NCBI GenBank assembly: GCA_965226555.1
Contig: CBDDDG010000014.1
Span: 64,001-128,000 of the forward strand
DNA: 64,000 nucleotides
Direction of reading: 5' to 3'
From: Salinispira sp.
GTDB lineage: Bacteria > Spirochaetota > Spirochaetia > DSM-27196 > Salinispiraceae
Shown: positions 33,001 through 36,000 of the stretch, in pieces
Layout: each line of letters starts with the position of its first letter
Numbering within the stretch: the stretch's first letter is position 1
Program-made: the position numbers

Positions 33001-36000
33001 CTGAAGTTCTCTATGTGTGCGCCCATAATCCTGGAGTAAGTCAGTTTCTGAAGAGGATAATCGGCTCGGATGCCGAACCGCTCAGTACACTGGGAACGGT
33101 ACTATGCGATCACGATGGCCCCTGGGAACATGCGCAATGGGAAAACCTGCGGGTCAGGGAAATTTTCAGCCCTGCCAGCCTCCGAGCCGGCGCGGGCAAG
33201 CGATCCGGCTCGGGCAAGCAATCGGGCGCGGGCAAGCAATCCGGCGCGGAACCGCGATCGGGCAAAGCCTAAGAGCGGGTATTCTGTGGAATTTCGTATC
33301 TTGCAGAGTATGGACGATATCCATGCTTCCGAATGGCAGAGCCTCGTTGCTCCCGAGACCAGCCCCTTTCTGGAGTATCCTTGGCTCCATGCCTGCGAAC
33401 ATTCAGGTTCCATGGTTCCCGAAACCGGGTGGCAGTGCAGCCACCTCATTGGCTTTCGGTCCTCTGAAGATGCCGAAAAATGTATGAAGCCCATACTCAT
33501 TCTCCCGATCTACATAAAAAACCATAGCTGGGGCGAGTTTGTGTTCGATTTTGCCTGGGCCGATCTTGCCTCCCAGTTGGGAAAACAGTACTACCCGAAG
33601 GCAGTTGGGCTCATTCCTGCGACTCCTGTTACCGCATACCGCCCCCTCATTGCCGAAGGCTGCGGACATGCCATTGAACCTGCCATTCATTTCCTGCGCG
33701 CAGAGCTGGAGGCAGCGGGAGTGAATAGCCTGTCGTTTCTCTTTGTTACTTCGGAGTTCTCCCGTATTCTGGAATCTCTGGGTTTTAATCGTTGGGTTCA
33801 TCAGGGCTTCAGGTGGTTCAGGAATGAGCAGAGGAGCTTCGACGACTATTTGGCAGGGTTCAAAAAAAATCAACGTAAAAATATCCGAAAAGAACGCAGG
33901 AGCGTGGAAGAAAACGAACTGAGGGTAGTTTATAACAGCGGGAGCGATCTTAGCAATGCCGTTGCCGCCGATATGTATGCTCTGTATTCCGCAACGAATG
34001 CCCGCTTCGGTATGTGGGCTGCAAAATTTTTTAATGAGGCCTTTTTTAAGGAGATATTCCGAACATTTTCCGAAAACATTATTATTATAAGCGCAGTGAA
34101 TGGTACTGCTGTCGGCCGCTCAATGCTGGTCTGCAAAAATAAAAAGCTTTTCGGCCGCTATTGGGGCGCTCACAGGTTTGTAAAAAATCTTCATTTTAAT
34201 CTCTGTTACTACGAGCCCATTAATTTTGCCATTCGCAGCACATTTCATTCCTTCGATCCCGGAATGGGGGGCGAACATAAGAGCAGGCGCGGGTTTATGG
34301 CCATTGAACAGTACAGCATGCATGGTTTTTTCGATCCTCTGCTGGAAAAATTCTTTGCCGGCAACATTCACCGCTTCAATACCTATGCCCGGCATCAGAT
34401 CGACCAGCTGAACGGGAAATGAATAATAAAATTCATGCGGATAGTGAGAAAGTTTCTATTTGAGACCATTGCATAATCCATGGTTTTATTGATGTAGGGA
34501 AGGATGATAAAAATTTGAGATAAAGTGATGGGATGATGCGGGAAAAACGGGGTGATAACACCATCTGAGCACCTGCGAAGGATCGCATTTCGCTCATTTT
34601 CGACCGTTTCTCCGCTGGTTTTCGTCTTTCGGGCGTCTGTTGCCGGTCGGCTTCTGCCGTTTGTCCCGAATGCGGTCGCTAAGCCGCCCATTTTCCCTGT
34701 TTCTGCAATTCCAAAATCTTCGGTACCCGTTTCAAATTATACGCAATAGCAGACAACAGATGCTGCGTATGCGCTTTTGTTATTCCGACATAGCGGGTTC
34801 TCCCCCCGCCAAACCATTGGTGCATTCCTCCGAATGTGCGTTCTATTTTGTACCGTCCGCGCTGTATCTCTTTGTTCCTCAGTTTCTGCTCCGCGGTCAA
34901 TTGCTTCTTCTTCTCACCCTTCTTCGCTCTGGCTACCTTCCACATAATGCCGTCTTTCAGCTTTCTCTTCTTCAGCGCCGCTCGGTTCTTCGTGCTTGTA
35001 TATCCTTTGTCCGCCTGCACTTCTACGTTCTCATCCAATTGCCCCTTATCGAGTAGCGTTTCAAACACCGTACTGTCATGGACATTCGCCGGGGCTGGTC
35101 GGAGGCTGCGCCTCCTGCTCGCCCATGCGTCCGGGGTGGTCTCGACCGCTACCATAAGCCCATTGTCATCGGCAAGACAATGCTTCTTCGCTCCAAAATG
35201 AAATTCCCCATTCTTTTTCGTCCACCTCATATCGGTATCTACTCTGTCCGCAAACTTCTCCGGTTCCCGCTCTAAGGATTTATTATCCGATTGAGCGCAT
35301 TCATCACTGTCTGTGCGATCAACGATCCCGCGGGGTTTTCTCGGACTTCTGGTAATGCTCGCATCAACTTTAACCGCTTTCTTAATCATAATCCCCCGCG
35401 TTTCAAGCTGTCGGTTTATTTCATTAAGCAGTCGGTCAAAGATTCCCGCTTTCGTCATGGCTGTGCGAAAACGGCTGAGAACACTGTGATCCGGCACATC
35501 ATCTTCCACAATAAGACCGCAGAAATTCGATGCTCCCATGCTGTCATTCACCATATCTTCCACACCATAATCGCTGAGATCATTCCACATTCCCAATAGA
35601 AGCATTTTGAACAGCAGCAGGCCAGGGTAGGCAGCCCTGCCGACCGCGCTGCTTCCTCGGGTATCGTGTTCTGTAATAATTTCCTCAATGGGCTTCCAGT
35701 CGATAATCTGGTCAATTTTCCGATAGAAGGTGTTTTTCCGTGTACGTCTTTCCATACTGTCTGCGACAAATGACATAGTGTGCTCCTGAGATTTGATCAT
35801 GGTAAGGATCATAGCATATATATGAGGACTGATTACAGCCAGAAAGCGAAAAATCGAAAGAAAAATTCAAAAAAGTTCATATGGGATGTTGACACTCTGG
35901 ATACATGAACGGTACTATAATATCACCGATGAGACTGTTGCCATGCAATGATCTCTATTTGAAAGTTTTGCAAAATGCAAAACTTTCTATAAAATAGGAG

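Follow-up and report, generated by a model that had tools for sequence, protein, structure and literature searches.

A 42-base hairpin unit in an IS5-family transposase gene of Salinispira, its insertion sites and its relatives in other bacterial phyla

IS608, a member of the IS200/IS605 group, moves as strand-specific folded DNA, leaves no target duplication and inserts 3' of a short target that is paired with a guide (PMC3201880, in the part available). In the IS608 and RAYT enzymes alike the guide pairs with the cut site, and both natural and engineered retargeting are described in the accessible parts of PMC3201880 and PMC8266576. The CGTC-tagged REP repeats are defined, in the available portion of PMC3733652, by an unpaired CGTC (or TGTC or CCTC) at the 5' foot of an 8–9-bp stem with a 4–5-nt loop, whereas the GTAG REPs of REPtrons carry a GT[AG]G tetranucleotide 0–2 nt 5' of the hairpin (PMC6006769, in part). 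IS91 likewise makes no duplication, passes through a single-strand circle and chooses a short target akin to the element's own end (PMC13181058, in part).

The unit analysed here holds no gene and consists of 41–46 bases. It resembles IS608 in its probable folded single strand, its lack of a general target duplication and its insertion 3' of a short target (as IS608 is described in the available part of PMC3201880); a guide at the hairpin foot, on statistical evidence, agrees with its GG and CC types and disagrees with its A/T and GC types. Unlike the IS200/IS605 elements it is one hairpin rather than a pair of separate left and right ends, its 2-base guide is itself paired as the base of the stem, CC and GG types occur naturally, and neither a Y1 parent with unit ends nor a lagging-template bias was seen. 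Small imperfect hairpins, occurrence in several phyla and some in-frame copies in replication and repair genes are features common to the unit and to REPs (PMC3733652, in part), and a guide-dependent cut site would be common to the unit and the REP/RAYT system (PMC8266576, in part). The suggestion in the initial annotation that the unit might be a divergent CGTC-tagged REP nevertheless disagrees with that family as defined in the accessible text, in tag, stem and dimer orientation: the sole CGTC of the unit lies in the variable foot and on the opposite strand, the modal stem is of 6 bp with a 3-nt loop, and arrays run head to tail, whereas the REPs mostly form inverted (head-to-head) dimers. 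The REPtron tetranucleotide, as given in the available part of its source, is also absent from the unit foot, NN-GG-NN-GCAT-N, and none of 72 fetched Y1 loci has the arrangement of a RAYT gene flanked by copies. The unit further departs from REPs in a stem sequence that is free within one genome and in its precise filled/empty pairs.

Like IS91 (PMC13181058, in part), the unit shows no duplication and a target akin to its own end, and it is enriched in IS91-family genes, but its ends are unlike a definable oriIS and terIS, it is an insert inside genes, and its target is a switchable dinucleotide rather than CTTG or GTTC. With RPE repeats it shares the habit of palindromic in-frame insertion into unrelated genes, and it differs from them, as they appear in the accessible part of PMC10969869, in being about 42 rather than about 150 bp long, in spanning phyla rather than being bound to a genus, in being mostly intergenic and in using three sense frames. 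A MITE of a DDE transposase is a poor comparison, the unit's ends being unlike each other and no fixed duplication being present. No description of the unit was found in a literature search made largely without subscription papers and supplements, nor in the available part of a 2026 preprint on non-coding clusters (10.64898/2026.10.21.760802), and the family is apparently undescribed.

The unit, its fold and its IS5-family host gene

The window, that is, the whole 64,000-nt stretch of the Salinispira contig that was analysed, contains a single match to the unit pattern, at 35093–35132 (minus strand), against none in 100 shuffled versions and 0 expected by chance; it lies in frame within a 377-aa ORF carrying IS5-family domains. 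The cut at 35093–35134 can slide within a 6-letter ambiguity, and the register chosen is the one shared by the measured filled/empty pairs. The features are as follows.

35093..35134, minus strand: whole 42-nt unit, from filled/empty pairs, in the register common to all measured pairs
35135..35140, minus strand: target bases ACCACC 5' of the unit, similar to the unit's own 3' end (comparison of IS5 copies)
35124..35134, minus strand: unpaired 5' foot, consensus NN-GG-NN-GCAT-N, in which GG and GCAT do not vary over the 30 aligned rows
35121..35123, minus strand: basal stem, 5' strand (GGC), with the putative guide in its first two bases
35116..35120, minus strand: 5' side (GAGCA) of the constant 5x5 internal loop (alignment and fold)
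35101..35115, minus strand: variable 6-bp hairpin with a C(GCA)G triloop (fold and alignment)
35096..35100, minus strand: 3' side (GACCA) of the internal loop (alignment and fold)
35093..35095, minus strand: 3' strand of the basal stem (GCC), the right end of the unit (filled/empty pairs and covariation)
34679..35812, minus strand: host ORF of 377 aa for an IS5-family transposase, in which 14 additional residues separate invariant TT from invariant A
41217..41246, minus strand: second, shorter unit, from GCAT on (pattern match)
4089..4100, minus strand: left-arm remnant just past the stop codon of an rpn-like gene (pattern match)
36018..36041, plus strand: empty site in a 131-bp repeat, about 10 other genome copies of which are filled here

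Rfam yields 0 matches at gathering score in the window, and the unit itself stays without a match even at E values of up to 10. A TD-2 match far under its gathering score lies near 35943–36023.

The unit family is real and forms a precise insert in the IS5 transposase. As had been reported, four IS5 copies in this genome are filled and one is empty, with a gap of exactly 42 bases; the empty form also occurs in contigs of runs X3, X4 and X5 (X4 and X5 stem from another study, X1 and X3 possibly from the source sample). All four filled copies have the unit at the same site and so go back to a single insertion, which the IS then carried along as it spread. When the best 120 homologues were compared, the 14 extra residues were present in the window's protein alone and absent from all 119 others, in which the motif split by the insert is free of indels. 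On this sequence comparison, the proposal that the unit adds residues instead of breaking proteins is doubtful at this locus.

In the unit, a 9–11-nt unpaired foot leads into a covarying 3-bp basal stem, above which stand a 5x5 internal loop and a free upper hairpin. Across an alignment of 30 hand-picked units, no change is seen in GG and GCAT of the foot or in GAGCAG and CGACCAG around the loop. The arms had been described as fixed, but the basal stem covaries and is of several types: among 193 distinct units there are 122 with GGC/GCC and 28 with CCC/GGG, besides the rarer CAC/GTG, AGC/GCT, ACC/GGT and TAC/GTA, and the innermost basal pair is C-G in 184. A structure test found 98.8% of cells paired and a covariation of 0.847 against 0.189 in shuffled alignments, a kind of score that relatedness can raise, and basal pairs show 14 and 11 double changes in 29 hand-picked rows. 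A variant with A-T as the first upper pair exists. A junction-spanning hairpin with a 9-nt loop was replaced, on the evidence of a mixed array and of variant units, by pairing within the unit.

The middles vary freely, with 157 symmetric hairpins, 120 of them perfect, among 168 distinct sequences, and a modal stem of 6 bp with a 3-nt loop. Their loops are strongly strand-specific. Within the 157 symmetric hairpins, GNA triloops number 62 and their reverse complement 0, and GNNA tetraloops occur 26 times against one reverse complement, while G-T and A-C mismatches (7 and 11) are uninformative on strand. Triloops of the form C(GNA)G are unusually stable in single-stranded DNA. Because GNA loops occupy one strand and have this stability in DNA, we take the GGACGCAT strand to fold as DNA. 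The strand specificity of the loops likewise makes a single-strand intermediate likely, in keeping with half of the initial proposal of movement as a single strand or small circle; no circular form of the unit was seen.

Filled and empty sites and the choice of target

The initial case for a mobile element without genes had one filled/empty pair, and it is strengthened by a total of 13, in which the insert measures 42 bp seven times and otherwise 41, 43, 44, 44, 44 and 46 bp:

IS5 transposase: 42 bp
Local 131-bp repeat: 42 bp (some 10 filled sites; 23 exact empty ones)
DnaG: 42 bp, against 5 orthologues
P. cellulosolvens repeat: 42 bp
Eubacteriaceae repeat: 44 bp
Clostridial hairpin: 46 bp
IS110 leader, three sites: 41, 42 and 44 bp
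IS91-family genes, four sites: 42, 43, 42 and 44 bp

One register serves all pairs, perhaps save the 131-bp site, with the insert starting 1–2 bases before GG and ending with the basal stem. Several pairs lack end repeats, which argues against a general target duplication, and some have 5–6-base direct repeats. Right flanks match the start of the unit no better than shuffles do, save for a tail of partial or degenerate units, and a general duplication was rejected. Left flanks are similar to the unit's own 3' end; in two measured pairs the target shares nothing with the unit junction and the ends are still precise.

The most interesting feature of the family, absent from the initial annotation, is that the two bases before the unit switch from CC to GG along with two paired bases of the basal stem. 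The counts were made on 226 distinct flanks after flanks preceded by another unit had been left out, and their P-values are inflated by related genomes and repeated host elements. A guide G goes with a target C in 137 of 176 cases and a guide C with a target G in 24 of 38; units with a GG guide stand behind CC in 72 of 149 flanks, those with a CC guide behind GG in 16 of 33. The last target base is C or G in a ratio of 119:12 for GG-guide (GGC-type) units and 6:20 for CC-guide (CCC-type) units, the other target position in ratios of 82:16 and 5:21, and at positions -7 to -10 the two types are alike. The CC core proposed initially therefore holds for GGC-type units and fails for CCC-type units, which follow GG. 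Within the complete genome of Paenibacillus lycopersici, GGC-type arrays lie behind C-rich runs such as CCTCC and CCC-type copies behind GGAGG, AGAGG or CAAG, a split within one genome that controls for the host. The predicted target is found in 1 of 12 flanks of units with guide A or T at position 1 and in 2 of 15 flanks of GC-type units, and two of the measured pairs have targets without any match to the guide. The landing site is likely read by pairing with two bases of the basal stem, a rule that the GG and CC types fit and the A/T and GC types do not. No lagging-strand-template bias emerged, 21 of 29 loci lying on the C-rich strand in two complete genomes and 33 of 70 in the Salinispira genome, a comparison confounded by target composition.

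Copies, spread, host proteins and unit length

In the Salinispira genome, 82 units are found at one mismatch or fewer per arm, and 130 hairpin-bearing units at 107 loci, with 0 in the reversed-genome control for either search. The 50 units with exact arms agree with the 49–50 counted before; the larger earlier total, 151 units at 113 loci, came from a looser definition. Arrays are direct, head to tail, with one inverted pair seen (locus L321), and many local ones mix full units with isolated left arms and other tokens. Intergenic copies take both orientations, many of them antisense to the ribosome-binding site of the next gene. Rpn is abundant in this genome, and many local arrays are tied to rpn cassettes: 57 of 119 rpn genes have a left-arm token within 60 bases of the 3' end, 31 of 119 have a right-arm-like leader end within 2.2 kb, and a half IS5 copy continues from the insertion site directly into four rpn cassettes. 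Hitch-hiking with this amplified cassette explains the local count.

Beyond this genome, the exact-arm pattern matches at least 93 stretches of the genome collection, with Spirochaetota and clostridial Bacillota among the 80 matches listed. In one clostridial family 27 of 38 genomes are carriers; so are 7 of 40 genomes related to that of Salinispira and 3 of 300 further genomes from its phylum. When basal-stem variants were scanned for, at least 106 loci came up, at least 53 of them with a hairpin, and 53 of the 106 were dropped for having none; the hairpin-bearing carriers among the matches listed are Paenibacillus, Cohnella, Lachnospirales, Spirochaetota and one Fibrobacterales MAG. Among the metagenome matches listed, 111 of 122 loci have the hairpin. 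A relaxed viral scan gave a hairpin in just 9 of 121 loci, and its remaining hits were set aside as chance matches. The unit therefore crosses phyla, from spirochaetes to clostridia and paenibacilli, a wider spread than first described, and its cultured carriers include Pseudobacteroides cellulosolvens and Paenibacillus lycopersici.

Copies lie in frame in DnaX, DnaG, MnmG, Lhr, a hydrogenase subunit, MsrB and RseP; between them they occupy each of the three sense frames, and 11 of 12 copies in Pfam-supported genes run in the sense direction. The in-frame copy in RseP was seen again, the protein having 35 more residues than the two closest of 7 orthologues, one full unit being among them. Genome G040 has one dnaG match, so the insert in that gene is likely tolerated. 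The array reported inside a transporter (C14:249922) does lie in the ORF, not however within the body of the protein but at the extreme N-terminus, ahead of the permease domain.

Length had been thought to be tuned to multiples of three. With unit lengths inferred by rule, such lengths are found in 5 of 47 local copies outside long open frames and 6 of 10 inside, and in other genomes in 68 of 115 non-coding copies against 43 of 51 in long open frames (Fisher P 0.0013); of the tandem periods seen directly, 3 of 11 in local strings and 11 of 22 in outside strings are multiples of three, and 41- and 43-bp inserts frameshift IS91-family genes. The tuning claim is unsupported, 6 of the 13 measured inserts and 42 of the 47 local non-coding copies not being multiples of three. 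It is rather unlikely, in our estimate, that the 42-nt modal size was selected on the element itself, whatever moves it, with frame-keeping copies surviving in more places. In its favour are the position of 42 as the mode (56 of 121 distinct outside cores, of which 81 are multiples of three) and the high proportion in outside non-coding copies, but the excess disappears once 42 is removed (25 of 65), the non-coding copies of the Salinispira genome do not show it, a 6-bp stem with a triloop yields 42 on structural grounds alone, and lineages of 43 and 44 are active. A preferred 42-nt fold together with purifying selection explains the length data, and tuning is possible but unneeded.

The route of movement and its enzyme

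That no partner enzyme stands beside the copies, as first stated, agrees with all our neighbourhood searches: Pfam found no transposase among 118 neighbours of units, and no dedicated partner came out when neighbouring ORFs were clustered, first 796 and later 1,355 of them. The Salinispira genome, 93.5% complete, has no Y1, Y2 or reverse-transcriptase (RVT_1) match. Y1 is missing in the complete carrier G045 and in 7 of 12 further carriers, and the complete carrier G382 lacks it too; Y2 is missing in the complete carrier G002. Y1 does not track carriage, being present in 20 of 27 carriers and in 9 of 11 non-carriers. In the 72 fetched Y1 loci no unit lies in the gene and no gene is flanked on both sides, two having one array nearby; a Y1 gene occurs at 1 of 404 pattern-found loci. 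Three copies of an IS110 in G045 have 2–3 units upstream of the gene. These were considered as part of the bridge-RNA region, but 8 relatives show them to be later inserts, making IS110 a host and not a parent, and the same IS110 used as query had no match in the Salinispira genome.

IS91-family genes stand apart. Units lie inside such a gene at 10 of the 404 pattern-found loci, often 2–4 per gene, against about 8 loci matched at any distance by a comparison panel of DDE and IS110 proteins. The family assignment is confirmed by Pfam for 9 of the 11 segments examined. One gene can contain as many as four units, of varied types, and both orientations occur; because certain sites recur in more than one genome, the loci outnumber the independent events. 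A family search for Y2 loci found a unit in the gene in 4 of 76, where about 0.5 would be expected from flanking DNA (rough Poisson P 0.0015), one of the four being also a pattern-found locus. Y2 is present in 10 of 27 carriers and 1 of 11 non-carriers (P 0.12), an association only. A second insert family was observed in the same IS91-family genes. As a parent element IS91 was rejected: its ends, taken from copy pairs, differ from the unit, and unit-like ends were absent from 88 Y2 loci, many of them too short to include both ends. Possibly rolling-circle transposition exposes Y2 genes as targets, or else the enzyme acts in cis. The IS91-family Y2 transposase is the leading named candidate for the mover, a tentative assignment that we hold to be possible rather than probable.

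The best reading of the whole, to which we give somewhat more than even credence, is a single-strand, guide-directed mini-element moved in trans by an HUH-type enzyme. The unit would travel as one folded DNA strand, probably as a small circle, and an HUH-type tyrosine enzyme supplied in trans would cut and join it, binding the constant foot and the GAGCA/GACCA loop. The 5' basal strand would pair either with the 3' end of its own unit or with a target end that mimics it, the break would fall just 3' of the paired dinucleotide, and the target would then be joined to the foot. Copies would insert behind each other, because the unit's own end is presumably the best target, giving head-to-tail arrays, some of them mixed, which slippage would lengthen. 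CC or GG targets would be common at ribosome-binding sites, the landing place of many intergenic copies, and selection would purge frame-shifting copies from needed genes, leaving survivors of mostly 42 or 45 bp. The guide step would follow, by analogy, the logic of IS608 and of RAYT with its GTGG guide.

Other routes have to be set against this one. Without any dedicated enzyme, host replication or repair might capture stable single-stranded hairpin fragments at short matches to their junction, slippage then building the arrays; the lack of a partner among the 1,355 ORFs, the likeness of the flanks to the unit's own end, the 5–6-base direct repeats of some pairs and the absence of each named enzyme family from some carriers would all suit such capture. 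We nevertheless find it improbable, the ends being precise even where the target is unlike the junction, and the foot and internal loop being constant across phyla while the stems are free, which points to a protein-binding surface. Also decidedly improbable is the idea that the units are a kind of REP whose mover, a RAYT-like Y1 transposase, is lost or located elsewhere in most carriers. Size, imperfect hairpin, intragenic copies and guide logic are REP-like, a GTGG guide directs cleavage at CC (PMC8266576, in part) and CGTC REPs are likewise without a linked enzyme (PMC3733652, in part), yet the stem foot has neither a GTAG nor a CGTC tag, the arrays are head to tail, and neither the Y1 loci nor the distribution of Y1 among carriers and non-carriers follows the units.

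The bond between arrays and rpn genes invites the thought that the units are a miniature version of the local rpn cassette and owe their movement to the Rpn nuclease, and the tokens and leader ends at rpn genes and the half IS5 copy joined to four cassettes at the insertion site speak for it. We regard it as very improbable: hitch-hiking accounts for the local count, PF12784 matches in 0 of 38 genomes of the clostridial family with its 27 carriers (a model that also misses the Salinispira genome's own Rpn family), TIGR01784 is missing in 3 of 5 carriers, and none of the 796 outside neighbours is similar to the local Rpn. Equally hard to credit is an RNA intermediate copied by a reverse transcriptase. 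It would be in keeping with the good fold of the unit as RNA and with the sense bias in Pfam-supported genes, and it is opposed by the predominance of GNA-type triloops, by the lack of an RVT_1 match in the Salinispira genome and by intergenic copies that lie both ways, many antisense to a ribosome-binding site.

Returning to the guide-directed mini-element, we advance as a tentative and still rather doubtful proposal that these 42 bases of DNA may be a complete, naturally reprogrammable cross-phylum element, in which two stem bases would set the target, of which types with unlike targets would live side by side in one genome, and which would hijack the IS91-family rolling-circle transposases of other elements, peppering the genes for them with its own copies. 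How REP-like repeats spread without a linked transposase is an open question (PMC3733652, in part), and the family offers exact ends, a defined fold, cultured carriers and a natural experiment of two target types predicted from the stem, so that the mechanism is testable with synthetic oligonucleotides. To conserved proteins such as DnaG, DnaX, MnmG, MsrB and RseP the unit adds about 14 residues, in copies that are mostly survivors of selection. If the guide reading is true, it would be among the smallest retargetable insertion units.

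Repeats that host the hairpin unit

The 131-bp repeat of the Salinispira genome, which matches Rfam TD-2 only weakly and far under threshold, breaks three IS5 copies, all at one position. Copies of it lie in the window at:

35943-36090, copy of the 131-bp repeat
40643-40666, copy of the 131-bp repeat

Two further, unnamed repeats host the hairpin unit at outside loci (L094, L099, L104, L286-L295; L296-L319), and each has a fixed insertion site for it. One occurs in P. cellulosolvens, where 34 copies are empty of the unit, and the other in Eubacteriaceae MAGs. At L436/L858, the hairpin of one unit itself bears another, nested insert.

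Other small or mobile elements at the outside loci

A second family of small inserts, with the core GGGATCGTTCCTC ... GGTACGACCC, is present in IS91-family genes (L768, L075, L352) and in the complete carrier genome G045 (L258/L322); it was not found in the Salinispira genome. These inserts are positioned 3' of GCAT, measure 42 bp in both measured pairs (n = 2) and occupy one common site in two IS91-family genes; apparently, the family has also entered the foot, or unpaired 5' part, of the 41-46-base hairpin unit.

The IS110-family element at L374-L376 and L399-L406 has inverted repeats in sub-terminal position, and upstream of it lies a conserved non-coding region, about 300 bp long, that is probably its guide RNA. 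Element and upstream region are common to records from Spirochaetota, Kiritimatiellae and Dehalococcoidia.

Protein genes and rpn cassettes

In the Salinispira RseP gene (C1:81250-81370), a partial unit and short repeats encoding DAQAQA are followed by a unit; jointly, all of these add 35 residues ahead of the PDZ domain. The PARCEL genes of the window belong to a 140-ORF family of this genome. The genome has 119 rpn-like 3' ends; the rpn-like protein tested scored below the TIGR01784 cut-off.

36295-39982, two neighbouring FN3 + DUF285 (PARCEL) protein genes
4052-4070, 3' end of rpn-like gene
12606-12624, 3' end of rpn-like gene
21989-22007, 3' end of rpn-like gene

Outside the window, at C10:480300-486800, half an IS5 copy gives way, from the exact insertion site, to an array of units plus four rpn cassettes in tandem, a junction that is likely to represent a rearrangement via hairpin units.
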